A model generated the notes under the pieces. The model saw only the letters and a list, made by a program, of their open reading frames with translations, was not told the origin of the DNA and ran no database searches. From an uncultured delta proteobacterium (GTDB taxonomy: Bacteria; Desulfobacterota; Binatia; UBA9968): 64,000 bases of DNA. The stretch spans positions 32,001-96,000 of the forward strand of contig CAWFJP010000013.1 in assembly GCA_963816145.1 (NCBI GenBank). The letters run 5' to 3'. Below are positions 19,492-43,600 of this stretch, piece by piece; within the stretch, counting starts at the first letter, position 1; each line of letters begins with the position of its first letter. Made by a program: the position numbers and the translations under genes.

Positions 19492-19524
19492 AATAAAAAA
19501 GGGACACCCATGGGCATCCCTTTT
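19492..19524 (-). terminator. Intrinsic terminator downstream of the NuoF-like gene
   Basis: Minus strand reads GGGATGCC-CATG-GGTGTCCC followed by T6, about 25 nt after the stop at 19549. Confidence 0.75.
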
Positions 19525-19548: not shown

Positions 19549-20799
19549 TTACGCCCTAGCCAGCAGCGCCTGGAAGTCTTCGGGGAAAAGCTTGAGGGCG
19601 CTTTCAATCGGTGGACCCGGCATGGCGATCAGGTTGCAGAACCCTTTGCCTTTGTTGAAGGCGAGCAGTTTGCCGAACTGTTCGAGCATGGCAGCATTGC
19701 CTTGCCTTTGCTGAACTCTTTTCATCAGCATCGCAAGGCTCTTGGTCTCCATCTGACACGCCGGACATTGGCCGCAAGACTCGGTGGCGAAAAATTCGGT
19801 GATGCGCACTAGCTCATCGACAATGGAATCACCCTCGCGGACGATATGGACGACACCGCAGCCAAGCATGGAGCCGGCTTCGCGCATGGCGTTGGGTTCC
19901 AGCGGTGTATCGATCTTGTCCGCGGGCAGGTAGGCGGACGACGGCGAACCCGGCATGATCGCCTTGATCTTTTTGCCATCCTTCAGGCCGCCGCCGCATT
20001 CTTCAATCAGATGGCGCAGCGGTGTGCCGAAGGGGAGCTCATAGATGCCGGGACGTTTGACGTCCTCGGTTTCGTTGAGTGAGAACAGCATGGTGCCGGG
20101 ACAATCTTTGGTGCCGAAGCCGCGGTACCAATCGGCGCCCTTAAACAAGATGCGCGGCACGTTGGTTAGGGTCTCGACGTTGTTTACCGAGGTCGGTTTG
20201 CCGAACAGGCCGACGGTGACGGGAAACGGCGGTTTTTGCCGTGGCAGCGGCTTCTTGCCTTCGATGACTTCGAGCACCGCGGTGTCTTCGCCGGCGACAT
20301 AGTTATGCGGCGCGGCGATGATCTCGATGTCGAGGTCGTAGCTGCCGCCAAGAATTTTTTGACCCCAGTAACCGGCCGCTTTGGCTTCGCGCAAAGCATC
20401 ATTGACGCTTTGGATCGCCGTTTCGTACTTCGCGTTGATGTAAAGATAGGCTTTGGCTGCGCCGATGGCGTAGGAGCCGAGCACTGTGCCTTCGATGACT
20501 AAATGCGGCAAGTTCTCCAGCAGCACCCGGTCCTTTCGGCTGCCCGGTTCGTCTTCGCCGCCATTCATCACCAAATAATGCGGCTGCTCAGGAGCCTCGC
20601 GGGTGAACTGCCATTTTTTCCCCGTGGGAAAGCCCGCGCCGCCATGGCCGCGCAATCCTGCGTCAGAAATAACCTGAATGACGTCCTCAGGGGTTACCTG
20701 AAGCGCTTTGGCTAGCGCTTCATAACCGCCGCGGGCCTGATACTCTTTCAGTCCTTCGCGGCCTTCTACCACGCCCTTGGGGAAAAGGATGCCGTCCAT
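19549..20799 (-). CDS. Stand-alone NuoF-like NAD(P)H-oxidising FMN/[4Fe-4S] protein
   Basis: GLRGHGGAGFPTGKKW, NGGEDEPGSRKDR, YVAGEDTA, NNVETL and the N3 cluster motif ESCGQCPAC...GFC. No other nuo genes adjacent. Confidence 0.92.
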   Translation of the reverse strand: MDGILFPKGVVEGREGLKEYQARGGYEALAKALQVTPEDVIQVISDAGLRGHGGAGFPTGKKWQFTREAPEQPHYLVMNGGEDEPGSRKDRVLLENLPHLVIEGTVLGSYAIGAAKAYLYINAKYETAIQSVNDALREAKAAGYWGQKILGGSYDLDIEIIAAPHNYVAGEDTAVLEVIEGKKPLPRQKPPFPVTVGLFGKPTSVNNVETLTNVPRILFKGADWYRGFGTKDCPGTMLFSLNETEDVKRPGIYELPFGTPLRHLIEECGGGLKDGKKIKAIMPGSPSSAYLPADKIDTPLEPNAMREAGSMLGCGVVHIVREGDSIVDELVRITEFFATESCGQCPACQMETKSLAMLMKRVQQRQGNAAMLEQFGKLLAFNKGKGFCNLIAMPGPPIESALKLFPEDFQALLARA

Positions 20800-20803
20800 C
20801 GGC

Positions 20804-21133
20804 TTAGAAAACCCCCGTATCGAGTAGTTGGTAGATCAATTCCTTCAAAGACGAATCGATGGTGTCCAAGCGCTGCACATGGGGACCGCCGGCGAGGTGC
20901 GCGACGATGTCGTCGAGATCTTCGCTTTTGACATGAGCATACCAGTTCTTTTCAGGATAAATGACCACGTTGGGCCCTTCTTGGCAGGCACCAAAACACA
21001 TGTACGGTTTGACATCGACATCGGTCAGCCCTTTGGCGGTAATTTTTTGTTGCAACTCCACCGCCAACTGCTCCGACCCCCGGGCCTTGCAATCGATATT
21101 CTGACAAACGAGACAGCTTTGACTCACGGGCAT
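20804..21133 (-). CDS. Thioredoxin-like [2Fe-2S] ferredoxin (NuoE C-domain-like)
   Basis: 109 aa. CQNIDC...CFGACQEGPNVVIYP (CX4C...CX3C); RBS AAGGAG; ends 4 nt before the NuoF-like start. Confidence 0.9.
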   Translation of the reverse strand: MPVSQSCLVCQNIDCKARGSEQLAVELQQKITAKGLTDVDVKPYMCFGACQEGPNVVIYPEKNWYAHVKSEDLDDIVAHLAGGPHVQRLDTIDSSLKELIYQLLDTGVF

Positions 21134-21190
21134 CTCCTTCGGTCCTACTTACTAATGCTCGATTCGATATGCAACAGCTGAATTTGAAAC

Positions 21191-22297
21191 TCAATTCAAT
21201 TGCATTTGCGAGACCCAGTCTTTGCCCTTGATGATATCGGCGAGGATTTTTTCGTCTTCGGCATTCGGAAGCGCGTCATAGAGGTGCTTCTGATAGTCTT
21301 CTGCGCTGAGCAGCTCGCCGGTAACGCTATAGGTCTTGCCGACATGTTCGCCGATGGAGCGGTTGAATTTTAAGTCGGGCGCCTTCAGCTTGGTCTCTCC
21401 GTCCGGCACCAGTTGATTGAGCTGGTCGATCAATTGCTGCGATTCTTTCATGTAATGTTCGCGGGCGACATCGTTGAGCTTGTCTTTCTCCGCCGGCACG
21501 GTCGCGCTGTGTTCGTCGTAGCGGCCTTTGATGCCCCAGGTGTAGGCCCAGTGGGCCGACGATGAGTGGTCCGTGCCGAAAAGATCGTAAGCGGTGGAAA
21601 GCCACTTGTTAAAATATTTCTGCACGATCGGCACGGGAATTTTTTTGGCCCTGAGCACCCGAGTCAGCCCGGTGTGTCCGGTGAACATATGAAAATGCTC
21701 TTCTTTGAGCATCGCCGTGACGCTTTCGGCGAGCGGGGCGAAGGACGAGTGGCTCAGCATGGTTAACTGATATTTGCCGTCGCGATCGACGAATTCCGTG
21801 TAGGTGAAAAAGTCGAGCCAGTTGTTCACCGGCGCGTTGAACGAGCCGAGCAGCCGGTCGCCCCGAAAGGCGCGGCGTTCGAGCATTTTGCGCGCTTCAA
21901 GCTTGCCGGAATCGCCGAAGTAGTTCACCAGCAGGTAACACATCTGCCAGCCATGGCGCATTTCTTCGCTGTTGACCCGAGTCAGAGCTTTACGGTCGTA
22001 TTCGGTGGGCGCAGTATCGAGGAGGTTTTTTTGCTGCTCGACGGAAGCGAATTCGGTATCGCCCTGGTAGACTATGAGATTCATCAAGGCATCGCGAATC
22101 GATTGATTGGGGATTTGGCCAACTCGCTGCCATTTCTGCTGGCCTTTGAAATCGCCAAACTCGATCTCGGGGGAATGGAGCTCGCCCAGTTTGGTTTCGA
22201 ACTTATAGCCGTCGAGCAGTGCCGCATCGTAGCCGATGTCTTTTTGCCACTGATGGAAATAGTCGATCCAGTCATCGAAAGTTGAGATTTTGATCAT
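21191..22297 (-). CDS. BoxB-like di-iron aryl-CoA epoxidase (PaaA/PaaC/BoxB family), short form
   Basis: 368 aa; ATG after AAAGGA. QGDTEFASVEQQ, TAPTEYD, EEMRH, DRDGKYQL, SSFAPLA, EEHFHMFTG, DLFG and WGIKGR match BoxB-type motifs and di-iron ligands. Confidence 0.85.
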   Translation of the reverse strand: MIKISTFDDWIDYFHQWQKDIGYDAALLDGYKFETKLGELHSPEIEFGDFKGQQKWQRVGQIPNQSIRDALMNLIVYQGDTEFASVEQQKNLLDTAPTEYDRKALTRVNSEEMRHGWQMCYLLVNYFGDSGKLEARKMLERRAFRGDRLLGSFNAPVNNWLDFFTYTEFVDRDGKYQLTMLSHSSFAPLAESVTAMLKEEHFHMFTGHTGLTRVLRAKKIPVPIVQKYFNKWLSTAYDLFGTDHSSSAHWAYTWGIKGRYDEHSATVPAEKDKLNDVAREHYMKESQQLIDQLNQLVPDGETKLKAPDLKFNRSIGEHVGKTYSVTGELLSAEDYQKHLYDALPNAEDEKILADIIKGKDWVSQMQLN

Positions 22298-22319: not shown

Positions 22320-22337
22320 TTCGAACGATCGTTCGAA
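22320..22337. promoter_or_regulatory. Perfect 18-bp palindrome, putative TetR/PaaR-type operator
   Basis: TTCGAACGATCGTTCGAA is self-complementary and its core fits CNAACGNNCGTTNG. Lies between the -10 box and the RBS of the BoxB-like gene. Confidence 0.7.
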
Positions 22338-22340
22338 AGA

Positions 22341-22369
22341 TTTATAGCGGGTTGCCGGGAGGAAATCAA
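22341..22369 (-). promoter_or_regulatory. Putative sigma-70 promoter of the BoxB-like operon
   Basis: Minus strand TTGATT (22369-64), 17-nt spacer, TATAAA (22346-41). Confidence 0.55.
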
Positions 22370-22423: not shown

Positions 22424-24823
22424 CTAGCGATACATTTCCAACAGCTCGACCATTTCCAGCTGGCGAATTTGCTCAAACAGATAGCGCTTGATTTCGCCGA
22501 CGGTATCCATGCCAAGGACGATCTGCGCCGTCGCTTGGGCGGACTGATAACTGATGGACCGAATGGCCTTTTTAATCACGGGAAGATACAGCGCGCCCAT
22601 GCTGAACTCTTCTAAGCCCATGCCGAGGAGCACCAAGGCGCACAGCGGGTCACCGGCCATCTCACCGCACATGCTGACGCGTTTGCCAACTTTCTTGCCA
22701 GCAGCGATGGTTGTGTTGAGTGCGGAAAGAACGGCTGGATGCAGCGGTTCATAAAGATTGGCGACTTTGCGGTTACTACGGTCGACGGCCAGGAGGTACT
22801 GGATGAGATCGTTGGTGCCAATACTTAAAAAGTCGACTTCACGCAGAAACCGATCTGCCAATTGCACCGCGGCCGGCACCTCAACCATGATGCCGAGCTC
22901 CATCTGCCGGTCGTAGGGGGCGCCTTCGCGTTCCAATTCAGCTTTGGCCTCGGTTAGCAGGTCTTTGACTTTTTGAATCTCTTCGAGACTGGAAATCATC
23001 GGCACGAGCATGCGCACCAGCCCGAGATCGCCGACGCGTAGAATAGCCCGCAACTGGGTTTTGAAAATTTCTTCAACTTCTAGCGAGATGCGGATCGAGC
23101 GCCAACCCAAAAAGGGATTGGGCTCGGTAGCGACATTGCGCATGTAGGTTGGATATTTGTCGGCGCCGATATCGAGCGTGCGAATGGTGACCGGCTTATT
23201 CATCATGCCTTCGACGACGCGCTTATAAAGCGCGTATTGCTCTTCTTCACTGGGGAAATCACGGTGCGATAAAAAGGGGATCTCGGTGCGGTATAGGCCG
23301 ATGCCCTGGGCGCCATGGAAATGCGCGAAGGCGACATCGCTTAATAGCCCGACGTTGGCGTAGAGCGAGACGCGGTGGCCGTCAGTCGTTTGCGCGGGAA
23401 GATCTTTAAGTTCGCCGAGTTCACGATTGAGATCCGCGTAATCGCGTTCCAAACGATCGTATTCGCGGATCACCTCGGCGTTTGGGTTGACGTGCACGCT
23501 GCCGGCGTTGCCGTCGACGATCAGTAAATCGCCCTGGTGGACCTTTTCCATCAGATCTTCGACCGCAACGATGCTGGGAATCTCAAATGACTTGGCCAAT
23601 ATCGAGGCATGGGAGGTGACGCCGCCGGTGGCTAGGACAATACCCTTAAACTTGTCGCCTTCGAGCATGCTCAAGTCGGCGGGTGAAAGATCCTGCGCCA
23701 CCAAAATAGCGTCGTCCGGCACATCGTAGGGTTGCCCGTCGCCGCCGGAAAGTGTTTCTAACAACCGCTGCGCGGCGTCTTTGACGTCGGAGGTCCGTTC
23801 GCGCAGGTAGCTATTGTCGATCTTGGCGATGGATTCCATGTAACGTTCGAAGACCACCCGGACGGCATATTCCGCGACATAGCTGCCTTTGCGAATCTGT
23901 TGTTCGATCTGGTGAATGATCTGCGGATCCTCGAAAATCAGCCGATAGACGTCGAATATCGCACCTTCCTCGGCGGAAATCAGGCTGCTCATGCGCCGCT
24001 TGACGACGTCGATCTGGTCGATGCCGCGCTCCACCGCGCCGCGAAAGCGCTCGATCTCATGCCGGGGATTGCGCGATTTTTTCTTCTTGATCGCGTTCAG
24101 TTCCATGCGCGGCTCAAGGACAAAGGCTCGCCCGCGGCCAAAGCCCGGCGATGCCGCCAGGCCGGTCACGCGCCCGCGCCATCTCTGTTTGACCTTTGTC
24201 GTTGGTTCCGGCGGAGCGCCTTCATAGGAGCGCAGCTTGCGCATCGCCTCGTTCATGCGCTTCTGATATTCCTTGCGCTCCTCTTCCTTGGAGCGCAGGT
24301 TGTCGGTGAGCCGGGCCTGGAGGATGATACTGGCCGCCTGGCCCGAGATCGTCGTCAATAGGCGAATCTCATCACGGGAAAACTCGCGCCGGCGGGAAGT
24401 TTGCACCACAAGCACGCCGAGCGGCGTTTTCTTATCGAACAGCGGTACGCCGAGGAACGAGTGGAAATGCTCTTCGTGGGTTTCAGGAAAGTATTTGTAG
24501 CGCTTGTGTGCCAGGGCATCGACGACCATCACCGGCTTCATTTGCTCGATGACTAGACCGGTCAAACCTTCGCTGGTGCCCATGGATACTCTACCGACCG
24601 ACTCGGGATCGAGTCCCATGGTCGCGCAAAGGGTCAGGCGATTCTTCTTGGCATCGAAGATATACAGCGAGCACACTTCAGTCTGCATCCGTTCGGCAAC
24701 CGTGGCGACCAGCCGGTCTAAGGTTTCTTGCAGGTCGTGCGAATGGCTTATCAGTGTGCTGATGTCCGCGAGTATACCCAGGTGGGGGTGGGTAGTGCGG
24801 GCGATCTTGGTGTTTTTTGCCAT
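22424..24823 (-). CDS. ptsP: PEP-protein phosphotransferase with N-terminal GAF domain (enzyme I-Ntr)
   Basis: 799 aa. GAF domain (EVCSLY...EGLTGLV...SFLGVPL), TSHASIL phospho-His, GIGLYRTE, RTLDIGADK, FLSIGTNDL, MCGEMAG. Confidence 0.95.
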   Translation of the reverse strand: MAKNTKIARTTHPHLGILADISTLISHSHDLQETLDRLVATVAERMQTEVCSLYIFDAKKNRLTLCATMGLDPESVGRVSMGTSEGLTGLVIEQMKPVMVVDALAHKRYKYFPETHEEHFHSFLGVPLFDKKTPLGVLVVQTSRRREFSRDEIRLLTTISGQAASIILQARLTDNLRSKEEERKEYQKRMNEAMRKLRSYEGAPPEPTTKVKQRWRGRVTGLAASPGFGRGRAFVLEPRMELNAIKKKKSRNPRHEIERFRGAVERGIDQIDVVKRRMSSLISAEEGAIFDVYRLIFEDPQIIHQIEQQIRKGSYVAEYAVRVVFERYMESIAKIDNSYLRERTSDVKDAAQRLLETLSGGDGQPYDVPDDAILVAQDLSPADLSMLEGDKFKGIVLATGGVTSHASILAKSFEIPSIVAVEDLMEKVHQGDLLIVDGNAGSVHVNPNAEVIREYDRLERDYADLNRELGELKDLPAQTTDGHRVSLYANVGLLSDVAFAHFHGAQGIGLYRTEIPFLSHRDFPSEEEQYALYKRVVEGMMNKPVTIRTLDIGADKYPTYMRNVATEPNPFLGWRSIRISLEVEEIFKTQLRAILRVGDLGLVRMLVPMISSLEEIQKVKDLLTEAKAELEREGAPYDRQMELGIMVEVPAAVQLADRFLREVDFLSIGTNDLIQYLLAVDRSNRKVANLYEPLHPAVLSALNTTIAAGKKVGKRVSMCGEMAGDPLCALVLLGMGLEEFSMGALYLPVIKKAIRSISYQSAQATAQIVLGMDTVGEIKRYLFEQIRQLEMVELLEMYR

Positions 24824-41188: not shown

Positions 41189-43600
41189 ATGTCTGATGCC
41201 AACCGATCGACCAGTGCTTTGGCCGGCCTACGCGTGCTCGACCTGACCGGCCGCATGGGCGGCTATTGCGGATTATTGCTTGCTAATCTTGGCGCCGAAG
41301 TGTTGCTCATCGAGCCGCCAGGCGGCGATCCAATGCGGCGCGAAGGTCCGTTTAAAAATGACACTGCCCATGCGGAACGCAGCTTGTCCTTCGCTGCGTA
41401 TCATAGCAACAAACATGGTCTGGTTTTGAATCTCGAAGATGATCATGACCGCGAAAAATTTCATGAGCTCGCCGCCAACGCCGACGTGGTAATCGAAGAC
41501 ACGCCGTATGGTTGTCTCGACCAATTGCGGCTCGGCTACGCCGATTTGCAAAGGCTGAATCCTGCGCTAGTGTTGACTTCTATCAGCGGTTTTGGCCGAA
41601 CCGGACCCTATCGCGAGTTCAAAGCGCCGAGCATTGTCGCTTTTGCCATGGGCGGACTGATGAATCTCTGCGGCCATCCGGGGCGCGCGCCGCTCATGGG
41701 GCCCTGCGACGTGGCTTACCATTTGGGCTCGGTGCATGCAGCGTTTGGTACCATGGCGGCATTGTTCAACCGGCGCGCGACGGGTGTCGGCGATCATGTC
41801 GATATATCGCTGCAAGACGTGTTGGCAGCCGATCCGTTTCTGCGCATCATCAGCCGTTATAGTGTTACCGGCGAAGTGCCGGAGCGCAGCGGCCATAGCC
41901 AGTCGACTACCGTGGCGGAGACCTATCAATGCCAGGACGGCTATGCGCGCATCTTCGTCAACCAACCGGATCACTGGCGCCGTTTTGTCGAGTGGCTGGG
42001 CAATCCGGCAGAACTGCTCGATCCGAAATTGGAGAATGTCCAGAGCCGCTTCGCACTGCGCTCTCTGATCGATCGTCTGGTCGAAGCGCGCACACTTAAT
42101 TATCCGGTGAAAAAATTTTTCGAGCAATTTCAAACCAATCGTTTGGCTGCAGCGCCGATCAATCCGCCGAGCGGCTACGTTAACGACGAGCAGACCAAGC
42201 ATCGGAACTATTTTGCCGAAGTCGATCATCCTGCGATGGGCCGCCATCGATTTCCCGGCGATCCTTACAAATTCTCGGCGACCCCATGGCGCATCAGACG
42301 CGGCGCACCGTTGCTCGGCGCCGTCGGCGACAAGATTCCTGAGCCATTCACCGGCCCGTCAGCTTGGCGCGGTGGCGCGGATGCGGCGAAAAGCAATAGC
42401 GCCGCAAACCGAAGACCTCTCGAAGGCATTAGGGTGATCAGTTTCCCGACCGGTATCGTCGGTCCGGCATTGGCAGCACTATTGGCGGAGCAGGGCGCCG
42501 AGGTGATTTCCGTCGAAGCCGGCCGGGTCGTTCGCAGTCCACAGCGCGGGCAGCGCTGGCAAATCGCCTCCGATCTCGAAAGCAATCGCGAGCGCAAGCG
42601 CATTGCTCTCGACATGAAAAATCCCGAGGGACTGGCACTGGCGAAGCAATTGATCGCCAAGTCGGATGTAGTGGTGGAAAATTTCAGCGCTCGGGTGATG
42701 GCGAGTTGGGGTTTGGATTACCCGCGCATGAAAGAAATTCGTCCGGACATCATCATGGCAAGCCTGCAAGCATTCGGTCAGACCGGGCCGCGGCGCGACT
42801 ACGTCAGCTTCGGGCCAATTCTTATGGCCTATTCCGGCATGACCTATCTCTGGCGCGATCCGCAGATCGAGCGGCCAGGTGCCGGCAGCCAGACCGCCTT
42901 TCCCGACTATATCGCACCGTCCTATGGCGCTGTGGCGATCCTCGCCGCGCTGCACCACCGCGCGCGCACCGGCGAAGGACAATACATCGACATCTCGCAA
43001 GCCGAGACCGCGGCGTCGATGATCGGCCCGGCGTTATTGGAACTGCTCGTCAACGGCCGCGAGCCCGCGCCTCAGGGTAACTTCAGCGCGACGGCCGCAC
43101 CCCATGGCGCGTACCACTGCAAAGGCGACGATCGCTGGTGTGCCATCGCGATTGCCGGCCAAGAGGAGTGGAAACGCTTCTGCGAAACCATCGGCCATCG
43201 CGAATGGCTGGCCGACGCGCGATTTGCCGATCCTGCTGCGCGCATCGCCCATCGCAATGAGCTTGATGCTGCAATCGAGTCTTGGACCAGCAAGTACACG
43301 CCGCATCAGTTGATGATCATGTTACAGCGCGACGGCTTCGCCGCTGGCGTTGTCCAGACGGCTGAAGATTTATACCGCGACCCGCACCTGCGCGAGCGCG
43401 GTCTGGCACGAGAGGTTCATCACCGTGAGATCGGCTGGGTGACCCGAGCCGGCCCGACGGCACGGCTTTCTCACAATCGCGTGATCGCCGATGGCCCGGC
43501 GCATGTCGCTGGCGAGGACAACGAAGCGGTGTTGGGCGGGGTCCTCGGCATGGCGGCGGAGAATATTCGCGGTTTGTACGACCGCAAAGTGTTGCGCTAG
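41189..43600 (+). CDS. Class III (CaiB/BaiF) CoA-transferase, fused two-domain form
   Basis: 803 aa with two CaiB repeats (LAGLRVLDL...GAEVLLIEPPGGDPMR; PLEGIRV...SDVVVENFS...FGQTGP). Confidence 0.93.
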   Translation: MSDANRSTSALAGLRVLDLTGRMGGYCGLLLANLGAEVLLIEPPGGDPMRREGPFKNDTAHAERSLSFAAYHSNKHGLVLNLEDDHDREKFHELAANADVVIEDTPYGCLDQLRLGYADLQRLNPALVLTSISGFGRTGPYREFKAPSIVAFAMGGLMNLCGHPGRAPLMGPCDVAYHLGSVHAAFGTMAALFNRRATGVGDHVDISLQDVLAADPFLRIISRYSVTGEVPERSGHSQSTTVAETYQCQDGYARIFVNQPDHWRRFVEWLGNPAELLDPKLENVQSRFALRSLIDRLVEARTLNYPVKKFFEQFQTNRLAAAPINPPSGYVNDEQTKHRNYFAEVDHPAMGRHRFPGDPYKFSATPWRIRRGAPLLGAVGDKIPEPFTGPSAWRGGADAAKSNSAANRRPLEGIRVISFPTGIVGPALAALLAEQGAEVISVEAGRVVRSPQRGQRWQIASDLESNRERKRIALDMKNPEGLALAKQLIAKSDVVVENFSARVMASWGLDYPRMKEIRPDIIMASLQAFGQTGPRRDYVSFGPILMAYSGMTYLWRDPQIERPGAGSQTAFPDYIAPSYGAVAILAALHHRARTGEGQYIDISQAETAASMIGPALLELLVNGREPAPQGNFSATAAPHGAYHCKGDDRWCAIAIAGQEEWKRFCETIGHREWLADARFADPAARIAHRNELDAAIESWTSKYTPHQLMIMLQRDGFAAGVVQTAEDLYRDPHLRERGLAREVHHREIGWVTRAGPTARLSHNRVIADGPAHVAGEDNEAVLGGVLGMAAENIRGLYDRKVLR

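Follow-up and report, generated by a model that had tools for sequence, protein, structure and literature searches.

Aerobic hybrid pathways for benzoate and phenylacetate are entered through di-iron epoxidases that act on coenzyme A (CoA) esters. For the reduction of these enzymes PMC4498308 describes only two solutions: BoxA, and PaaE, which is a class IA reductase. The locus analyzed here raises the question of whether a third, unrelated solution exists. It lies in a stretch of 64,000 nucleotides (nt), hereafter the window, of contig CAWFJP010000013.1 from an uncultured bacterium of the Binatia lineage, where three neighboring genes encode a 368-amino-acid (aa) protein related to the benzoyl-CoA epoxidase BoxB, a thioredoxin-like [2Fe-2S] ferredoxin and a protein resembling the complex I subunit NuoF. 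A first-pass annotation, made from the sequence alone, had proposed that the three form an aromatic-ring epoxidase system with a NuoEF-like module as its reductase. We find that the trio is a real, conserved and separately regulated unit. That it is a regulated operon for a three-component aryl-CoA oxygenase, dependent on O2 and on reduced nicotinamide adenine dinucleotide (phosphate) (NAD(P)H) and served by a NuoF-type plus ferredoxin reductase, is a reading to which we give about an even chance.

The TE, EEMRH, DRDG and EEHFH motifs reported for the 368-aa protein are present and align to the metal site of BoxB. Its six iron ligands, E82, E112, H115, D171, E200 and H203, are invariant in a 53-sequence alignment and correspond to Glu120, Glu150, His153, Asp211, Glu240 and His243, the BoxB ligands named in the accessible text of PMC5489048. 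An AlphaFold2 model computed from that alignment (predicted local distance difference test score, pLDDT, 94.8) retrieved BoxB chains at ranks 1-10 in a Foldseek search (E ~1e-24; query-normalised template-modelling (TM) score 0.86-0.90). The top fold matches were 3PM5/3Q1G (TM 0.89-0.90), with PaaA far lower (TM ~0.55), and the C-terminal domain of BoxB is retained in the predicted fold. By sequence, the best solved relative is Azoarcus BoxB (3PER, E 1.4e-50), followed by the SSO1313-type structure 4MUD (E 5e-20). Residues 88-324 pass the gathering threshold of the Pfam family PaaA_PaaC (PF05138; 47.2 bits, threshold 28.5), and the PaaA model TIGR02156 is missed (43.7 bits, cut-off 280).

On the BoxB equivalog model TIGR03225 the protein scores 241 bits, short of the cut-off of 499.1, and matches in two stretches, the best of which spans model positions 84-322 of 471. 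Two canonical BoxB proteins, P0157 (475 aa) and P0154 (465 aa), score 908.5 and 672.2 bits on the same model, and their lengths bear out the statement that canonical BoxB exceeds the short protein by about 100 aa. The ~100 residues missing here come from the N-terminal segment, the C-terminal tail and three insertions within the chain, and identity to canonical BoxB in the alignment is ~38%. The low score and the shorter chain therefore place the protein, as judged from its sequence, in a separate and large 'short BoxB' family, and the system, if read as an aryl-CoA oxygenase, would be a variant of the BoxAB/PaaABCE kind, not BoxB proper. Automated pipelines call proteins of this short family BoxB despite their failing the BoxB model. 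One of them, P0165 (367 aa), has QADCHM, QENVTS, VNLCAK and QQHGEH in place of the di-iron ligand motifs and may be a non-catalytic, PaaC-like structural paralog. BoxB-like representatives with an extended N terminus (P0198, P0254 and others) showed no reductase domain, and one of them has a shikimate-kinase domain.

The substrate pocket can be compared in the same alignment. The accessible text of PMC5489048 lists Gln116, Thr119, Ser123, Phe193, Phe203/206 and Thr210 of BoxB as second-shell residues that orient benzoyl-CoA, and describes a hydrogen bond from Gln116 to the substrate. Five of these seven positions are kept in the short protein as Q78, T81, S85, F153 and F163 (BoxB Gln116, Thr119, Ser123, Phe193 and Phe203), and two are changed, Phe206 to Tyr166 and Thr210 to Val170.

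The second protein passes the gathering threshold of the 2Fe-2S_thioredx family (PF01257; 35.6 bits, threshold 24.8). On the NuoE model TIGR01958 it reaches 35.6 bits against a cut-off of 142.4 and covers just model positions 72-147 of 148; the NuoF-like and thioredoxin-like [2Fe-2S] parts of the proposed NuoEF-like module are upheld, and full likeness to NuoE is not. In 29 sequences Cys7, Cys10, Cys15, Cys46 and Cys50 are invariant (pattern C10-x4-C15...C46-x3-C50), as is a family-specific C-terminal tail of 20 residues, RLD.ID.SLK.LIYQLLDTG. Among solved structures it is nearest to Aquifex Fdx4 (1F37, E 1.8e-12) and to HydB (7Q4V_B) over residues 7-92 of the latter. A second tail-bearing ferredoxin of 106 aa is solitary in this genome (contig C11, 430834-431154), with neither a NuoF nor a di-iron gene adjacent. 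A search for longer proteins with a fused ferredoxin returned five singleton hits, two of them with a NuoF domain, too few to count as a natural ferredoxin fusion.

In the third protein all three NuoF domains are present (Complex1_51K, PF01512, 145.9 bits; SLBB, PF10531, 34.6 bits; NADH_4Fe-4S, PF10589, 57.7 bits), and Cys342, Cys345, Cys348 and Cys388, together with the glycine-rich motifs for flavin mononucleotide (FMN) and NADH, are invariant in 30 sequences. The NuoF model TIGR01959 is missed (410.3 bits, cut-off 558.65), no nuo operon surrounds the gene, and among solved structures the protein is about equally near NfnB (9N5U_B), Thermus Nqo1, Aquifex NuoF and HydB. Since the ferredoxin consists of the thioredoxin-like domain only and is nearest to Fdx4 and the HydB N terminus, the pair resembles a split subunit: in sequence terms it looks like a HydB/NfnB-type protein divided in two and lacking the C-terminal ferredoxin domain. 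HydB presumably carries a 2x[4Fe-4S] ferredoxin domain at that end, and the window's pair has no counterpart of it.

If such a pair is to serve an oxygenase, it should not be needed as the input module of another complex in the same cell. The source assembly (7.8 Mb in 31 contigs, completeness 99.5%, contamination 6.7%) contains a bona fide complex I pair on contig C12, with NuoF (616.5 bits) beside NuoE (185.2 bits). On contig C30 (23308-31072; L101:5308-13072), a fused NuoE-NuoF protein of 574 aa starts a formate-dehydrogenase-like cluster; after it come an iron-sulfur protein resembling the N terminus of NuoG, a molybdopterin oxidoreductase, MobA and a protein of the aldehyde:ferredoxin oxidoreductase family. 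The window's NuoF-like protein, which shares 38% and 41% identity with the other two NuoF homologs of the genome, is therefore a separate copy, and by gene content the window reductase is free for a role with an oxygenase. The pair is thus not the only complex I input of this genome, as the first-pass annotation had required. No BoxA that could serve the enzyme from elsewhere was found genome-wide either (best score 32.9 bits, cut-off 459.2), and a search with the BoxC model over the same assembly likewise gave no BoxC (72.1 bits, cut-off 712.3). Two benzoate-CoA ligases are encoded (787.6 and 587.3 bits, cut-off 375.25), one of whose genes precedes a Liv-type ATP-binding cassette transporter. 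PaaG-like crotonases are encoded too, among them a pair on contig C4 (416026-417552; 285.8 and 179.5 bits), and are candidates for ring opening in place of BoxC. There is also a second short BoxB gene, encoding a protein of 371 aa with 57% identity (contig C29, 106897-108012), and a gene for a bicupin resembling gentisate/5-aminosalicylate 1,2-dioxygenase comes after it (region 105753-108156).

Set beside known systems, the di-iron protein shares with BoxAB of Azoarcus evansii (3PM5, 3PER, 3Q1G) the fold, the six ligands and most of the benzoyl-positioning residues, and the short family is single-subunit, as is BoxB, which is monomeric according to the accessible text of PMC4498308. BoxB differs in its greater length, its own clade and its partner BoxC, and neither BoxA nor BoxC is encoded in the source genome. 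The same text gives BoxA as an NADPH-dependent protein with flavin adenine dinucleotide (FAD) and two [4Fe-4S] clusters and PaaE as a class IA reductase with FAD and [2Fe-2S]; the reductase here would instead be a NuoF-type FMN/[4Fe-4S] protein plus a [2Fe-2S] ferredoxin. With PaaABCE the system shares the Pfam family PF05138 and the general type, a di-iron CoA-ester epoxidase supplied by an NAD(P)H-dependent iron-sulfur flavoprotein, as far as the genes alone can tell; it differs in the low PaaA score and TM value and in having no PaaB-, PaaC- or PaaE-type genes beside the trio. The NuoF core with its FMN site, SLBB domain and N3-type four-cysteine motif is common to NuoE/NuoF and HydB/NfnB, and the ferredoxin shows the C-x4-C...C-x3-C pattern of NuoE and corresponds to the HydB N-terminal domain. 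Unlike NuoE, however, it lacks the N-terminal helical domain and has its own invariant C-terminal tail, and unlike the modules of complex I, hydrogenases and Nfn, the pair accompanies a di-iron oxygenase, and genes for NuoG-like proteins, hydrogenases, formate dehydrogenases or other Nuo subunits are absent from its vicinity. SSO1313-type proteins (4MUD), ~235 aa long and ~25-30% identical, lack the BoxB C-terminal domain. Proteins of ~240 aa that resemble this structure of Sulfolobus SSO1313 and are PaaA/PaaC-like occur several per genome here and in nearly all relatives (C5:299424-300014 and C30:54381-54953 in this assembly), with 24-32% identity to the core of the query.

Conservation of the trio was examined across sequenced genomes. 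Database relatives of the di-iron protein number 4690 at E<=0.001, and the best 120 of these 4690 are 82-96% identical. A scan of one genome per species gave 593 confirmed loci, in assemblies of Acidobacteriota, Chloroflexota, Gemmatimonadota, Planctomycetota and Thermoplasmatota and in Binatia-labelled ones. Neighborhoods were counted for the best 80 of the 593, which split into an A type (n=29, 71-95% identity), to which the window's protein belongs, and a B type (n=51, 58-64%), to which the C29 paralog belongs. A-type record titles name Binatia (13), delta-proteobacterial or Thermodesulfobacteriota-type organisms (11) and others (5), and the B type comes from Acidobacteriota, Chloroflexota, Gemmatimonadota, Planctomycetota, Thermoplasmatota and others. 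The ferredoxin gene is next to the di-iron gene in 28 of the 29 A-type loci and the NuoF gene follows in 27, the misses (L019 and L035) being contig ends; the A-type loci on sufficiently long contigs all share the same gene order and spacing. The trio is thus conserved elsewhere, as the first-pass annotation had required. Its description of a short di-iron protein with such a reductase fits the A type and does not extend to most of this very large family: 48 of the 51 B-type loci have no such module nearby, a tail-bearing ferredoxin lies near the gene in three (L050, L058 and L082), and the NuoF fragment near one B-type gene has a stop codon in its translation. In a maximum-likelihood tree (quick search, with Shimodaira-Hasegawa-like approximate likelihood ratio test, SH-aLRT, as the sole support measure; 28 A-type sequences used), the trio-linked A-type proteins form one clade (SH-aLRT 99) nested among B-type sequences. 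The A clade and the short family stand apart from canonical BoxB (SH-aLRT 99); deeper branching is weakly supported. The L058 protein, with a ferredoxin and no NuoF, branches beside the A clade.

The arrangement of the genes and their control elements (Table 1) agrees with a single regulated unit. All three genes are on the minus strand, and their coordinates and the gaps of 57 nt (di-iron/ferredoxin) and 4 nt (ferredoxin/NuoF-like) are confirmed. The mechanical open reading frame (ORF) of the di-iron gene begins at a TTG at 22369, and the ATG at 22297 is the likely start, because GAAAGGA precedes it and the orthologs are uniformly 368 aa long; the additional 72 nt from the TTG would moreover hold the promoter-like site and the operator. 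For the ferredoxin, the GTG two codons in is favored because it better fits the Shine-Dalgarno sequence and the 107-aa orthologs.

Table 1. Genes and candidate control elements of the trio (window positions)
Feature	Position	Strand	Remarks
Short BoxB-family di-iron oxygenase, 368 aa, A type	21191..22297	-	All six BoxB ligands; BoxB fold; GAAAGGA Shine-Dalgarno before ATG
Thioredoxin-like [2Fe-2S] ferredoxin, 109 aa (107 aa from GTG at 21127)	20804..21133	-	
NuoF-like FMN/[4Fe-4S] NAD(P)H dehydrogenase subunit, 416 aa	19549..20799	-	No additional N- or C-terminal domains
Promoter-like site: -35 TTGATT (22369-22364), 17-nt spacer, -10 TATAAA (22346-22341)	22341..22369	-	Read by eye
Perfect 18-bp palindrome TTCGAACGATCGTTCGAA, candidate repressor operator	22320..22337	.	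Directly after -10
Intrinsic terminator: 12-bp stem, 4-nt loop, then TTTTTTATTT (T-run)	19497..19524	-	25 nt past NuoF-like stop codon

The trio had been credited with its own promoter and terminator. The terminator is borne out and is a strong one, with its stem and T-run; a scan for the sigma-70 consensus called no promoter 5' of the operon, missing the site read by eye because the final base of its -10 is A. That site is conserved in position, since the related loci examined show a TTGAYTT box and an AT-rich -10 there as well. The palindrome that follows is conserved too. Allowing at most 3 mismatches over 16 scored positions, a version of it occurs 37-55 nt 5' of the start codon in 27 of the 28 A-type loci with enough upstream sequence, and just one further operator-like site was met elsewhere in those loci (349,631 nt). 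The whole 7.8-Mb genome has only three matches with at most 2 mismatches: the operon's own site is among them, and another is a near copy, TTCGGACGCTCGTTCGGA, 127 nt upstream of the B-type paralog on contig C29. An operator-like site at both places points, at the sequence level, to a regulator common to the operon and the paralog. Upstream of the B-type genes from other phyla the operator was found in 0 of 51 loci.

The palindrome contains TCGAAC-N4-GTTCGA, the type of LexA box found in actinobacteria and Gram-positive bacteria. SOS regulation was considered for the operon and rejected: the genome has 10 copies of CGAAC-N4-GTTCG where 8.9 are expected, and no TCGAAC-type box was seen before the genome's lexA or recA. 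The lexA promoter region (contig C15, 204429-204690, upstream of lexA) has instead a CTG-N10-CAG palindrome, ACTGAAATTATTTTCAGT, preceded by a GTTCAAA/TTTGAAC repeat array.

Neighboring genes give some indication of the substrate for the B type, whereas nothing beside the trio itself points to a pathway. Among the 52 ORFs scanned in the window there is no nuo, hydrogenase, formate dehydrogenase, boxA, boxC or paa gene, as had been stated; for the PaaB/C/E-type families this refers to the window ORFs, no genome-wide search having been made for them. Directly upstream lies a gene for a GAF-domain PtsP (enzyme I-Ntr type; 22424-24823, minus strand; 617.5 bits on NF008283), whose position is kept in 20 of the 29 A-type loci through lineage synteny or a functional link. 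Past the terminator the genes encode a solute-binding protein, then a protein of PuuE/deacetylase type and an alpha/beta hydrolase, and other A-type loci have genes for a radical SAM protein, a Leu/Phe-tRNA protein transferase or TctA-type transporters.

For the B type, mechanically called ORFs within 8 kb were grouped by BLAST and one representative per cluster was tested. Crotonases, which often flank the gene on either side, occur in 24 of the 51 loci; a TetR regulator is found in 14, an aldehyde dehydrogenase in 9 and a three-gene molybdenum enzyme in 9, and a 3-hydroxyacyl-CoA dehydrogenase cluster has 7 members. The representative molybdenum alpha subunit passes the model for the 4-hydroxybenzoyl-CoA reductase alpha subunit (1006.3 bits, cut-off 994.55), and a long crotonase representative scores 227.5 bits on PaaG and 195.8 on alternative oxepin-CoA hydrolase, both under the cut-off. 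In a Terriglobia-labelled locus (L058:6917-9460), a divergent gene for an XRE helix-turn-helix plus shikimate-kinase-like regulator is followed by a short BoxB gene and a tail-bearing ferredoxin gene, with no NuoF. This architecture is that of the benzoyl-CoA sensors BzdR and BoxR; such a regulator was found in 1 of the 80 loci, this one, and the source genome has a match to the kinase-like part only. On this sequence-based evidence an aryl-CoA, most simply benzoyl-CoA, is our best guess for the substrate of the short BoxB family, and the family data fall short of showing an aryl-CoA for the A type.

Several results weigh against reading the trio as an aryl-CoA oxygenase with a reductase of its own. 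Across 40 genomes of the same order (unpublished G005 included), a full-length A-type di-iron gene is found in 31 (genus, 21 of 24; family f2, 5 of 5; family f3, 5 of 11), against 38 for a NuoF ortholog with 60-91% identity. Two of the genomes, G035 (L104:5049-6818) and G038 (L103:5687-7577), have only a C-terminal remnant of the di-iron gene, residues ~312-368, beside an intact ferredoxin and NuoF, and the ratios of nonsynonymous to synonymous substitution (dN/dS) between the two genomes, 0.20 for the ferredoxin and 0.14 for NuoF, indicate purifying selection. Because the module is kept where its neighbor was lost, it is not strictly dedicated to the adjacent gene, and these genomes indicate that it has a role without that gene. 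A B-type gene is present in both genomes and in all 11 of their genus, no searched relative carries the module without a short BoxB of A or B type, and the module probably serves the B-type short BoxB of the same genomes as well; for the remnant loci an independent role would be an equally good explanation. In five B-type genomes of other phyla, three gave no ferredoxin match at E<=1e-5 and two gave weaker matches. The accessible text of PMC4498308 reports that BoxB needs BoxC to escape product inhibition, so that the absence of BoxC from the genome counts on the same side, as do the missed BoxB equivalog cut-off and the finding that no CoA-pathway gene adjoins the trio. Complex predictions from alignments of the three proteins, with the di-iron protein as partner, gave scores of 0.02 and 0.25 (mark 0.32); run without controls, they speak neither for nor against binding, and the contact between the proteins that the scheme would entail thus lacks a passing interaction prediction. 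BoxB Thr210, one of the two changed contact positions, is reportedly tied to stereoselectivity in a density functional theory study, and its replacement by Val is a further point of this kind.

Some of these observations would fit the same redox chain driving a different chemistry, such as hydroxylation, desaturation or epoxidation of a substituted aryl-CoA, a non-aromatic acyl-CoA or another thioester or metabolite, in a housekeeping or biosynthetic role. The missed BoxB cut-off (241 vs 499.1), the two changed positions among seven and the lack of BoxC are joined here by the near-universal presence of the trio in the genus (21 of 24 genomes, G005 included) and by its non-catabolic neighbors, ptsP (20 of 29), the radical SAM gene and the Leu/Phe-tRNA protein transferase gene. 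We nevertheless regard this explanation as rather doubtful, given that Gln116 and four further ring-positioning residues are kept, that sister genes adjoin 4-hydroxybenzoyl-CoA reductase and crotonases, and that one sister locus has the regulator that presumably shares the BzdR/BoxR architecture. Less probable again, and in our judgment unlikely, is that the ferredoxin and NuoF-like protein are an independent NADH:ferredoxin-type module for general supply or another partner and merely co-transcribed with the di-iron gene. Persistence of purifying selection beside a remnant di-iron gene, the solitary tail-bearing ferredoxin on C11 and the 48 of 51 B-type loci with no module nearby would be expected of such a module; the fixed order and spacing in all sufficiently long A-type loci would not, nor would the single conserved promoter-like site, operator and terminator that flank the three genes, the operator-like site 5' of the genome's B-type paralog, the short BoxB of A or B type in all searched module-bearing relatives, or the ferredoxin adjoining B-type genes in three loci of other lineages. 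Ferritin-like di-iron proteins also include oxidases and peroxidases, and together with the absence of pathway genes next to the trio and its wide retention within the order this leaves some room for an NADH oxidase or peroxidase-like scavenger of O2 or reactive oxygen species, in which the di-iron protein would reduce O2 or H2O2 with no organic substrate. Retention of the whole BoxB fold, including the C-terminal domain and the substrate-contact residues, and the fact that the nearest families are all CoA-ester epoxidases make this explanation very improbable.

The aryl-CoA oxygenase reading thus gains support from the conserved benzoyl-contact residues and from the neighbors of the sister genes, and the aryl-CoA epoxidase proposed in the first-pass annotation is partly supported, with the adjustment that the module is not strictly dedicated to the adjacent gene. 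Of the refuting outcomes named in that annotation, those open to computation all failed to appear. Under this reading, the NuoF-like flavoprotein would take a hydride from NAD(P)H onto FMN, and single electrons would pass through its [4Fe-4S] cluster to the thioredoxin-like [2Fe-2S] ferredoxin and from there to the di-iron center of the compact BoxB-type protein. The latter would activate O2 and epoxidise the ring of benzoyl-CoA or a near aryl-CoA analogue. We infer the order of electron transfer, the pyridine nucleotide, the protein contacts, the substrate, the way in which the epoxide is opened in the absence of BoxC, and what becomes of the product.

A wider and more tentative proposal, which we hold to be possible and somewhat short of an even chance, is that a split HydB/NuoF-type flavoprotein and a tail-bearing ferredoxin constitute a new reductase class for bacterial di-iron monooxygenases. 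This class would feed a large family of compact BoxB-type aryl-CoA epoxidases, adjacent in the A type and unlinked in the B type, and would allow NADH-linked aerobic dearomatisation of benzoyl-CoA without BoxA or BoxC in Binatia-like soil bacteria, under a dedicated repressor that binds TTCGAACGATCGTTCGAA. If true, a NuoF-type protein with a thioredoxin-like ferredoxin would be a third reductase solution, unrelated to the other two, and a rare case of a complex I input flavoprotein serving an oxygenase. Knowledge of what the large compact BoxB family does would also alter the interpretation of aromatic-carbon turnover in soil and wetland metagenomes. A literature search turned up neither short BoxB proteins nor the trio, supplementary gene tables being outside its reach.

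The stretch itself is common in such metagenomes, with 14 DNA runs from soil and wetland holding it almost in full (at least 94% of sampled words in each). Parts of all three genes are covered, at a likeness of at least 90%, by contigs from four metatranscriptome libraries, which belong to four studies, and one of these contigs, X15 (228 nt, 2 differences), extends from the last part of the di-iron gene across the 57-nt gap into the beginning of the ferredoxin gene. No RNA-library contig bridges the ferredoxin/NuoF junction by a 31-letter rule, and uncovered bins carry no meaning. The contigs show neither strand nor transcript ends, and because such libraries can hold DNA, they give a weak hint that the di-iron and ferredoxin genes are co-transcribed.

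Two further sets of genes were noted. A cluster on contig C11 (248856-257124; L102) encodes a BcrB/HGD-D-like protein that misses the benzoyl-CoA reductase B cut-off (304.4 bits, cut-off 486.55), along with a BcrAD/BadFG-type ATPase, a short-chain dehydrogenase/reductase, two crotonases and an acyl-CoA dehydrogenase; it may be an ATP-dependent reductase or dehydratase cluster for an aryl- or hydroxyacyl-CoA. The 64-kb window itself is unusually rich in orphan periplasmic solute-binding proteins (NMT1/THI5-like, SBP_bac_5, SBP_bac_6 and TctC) and also holds MmgE/PrpD proteins, amidohydrolases, an arylmalonate-decarboxylase-like gene and a double-length family III CoA-transferase (41189-43600).

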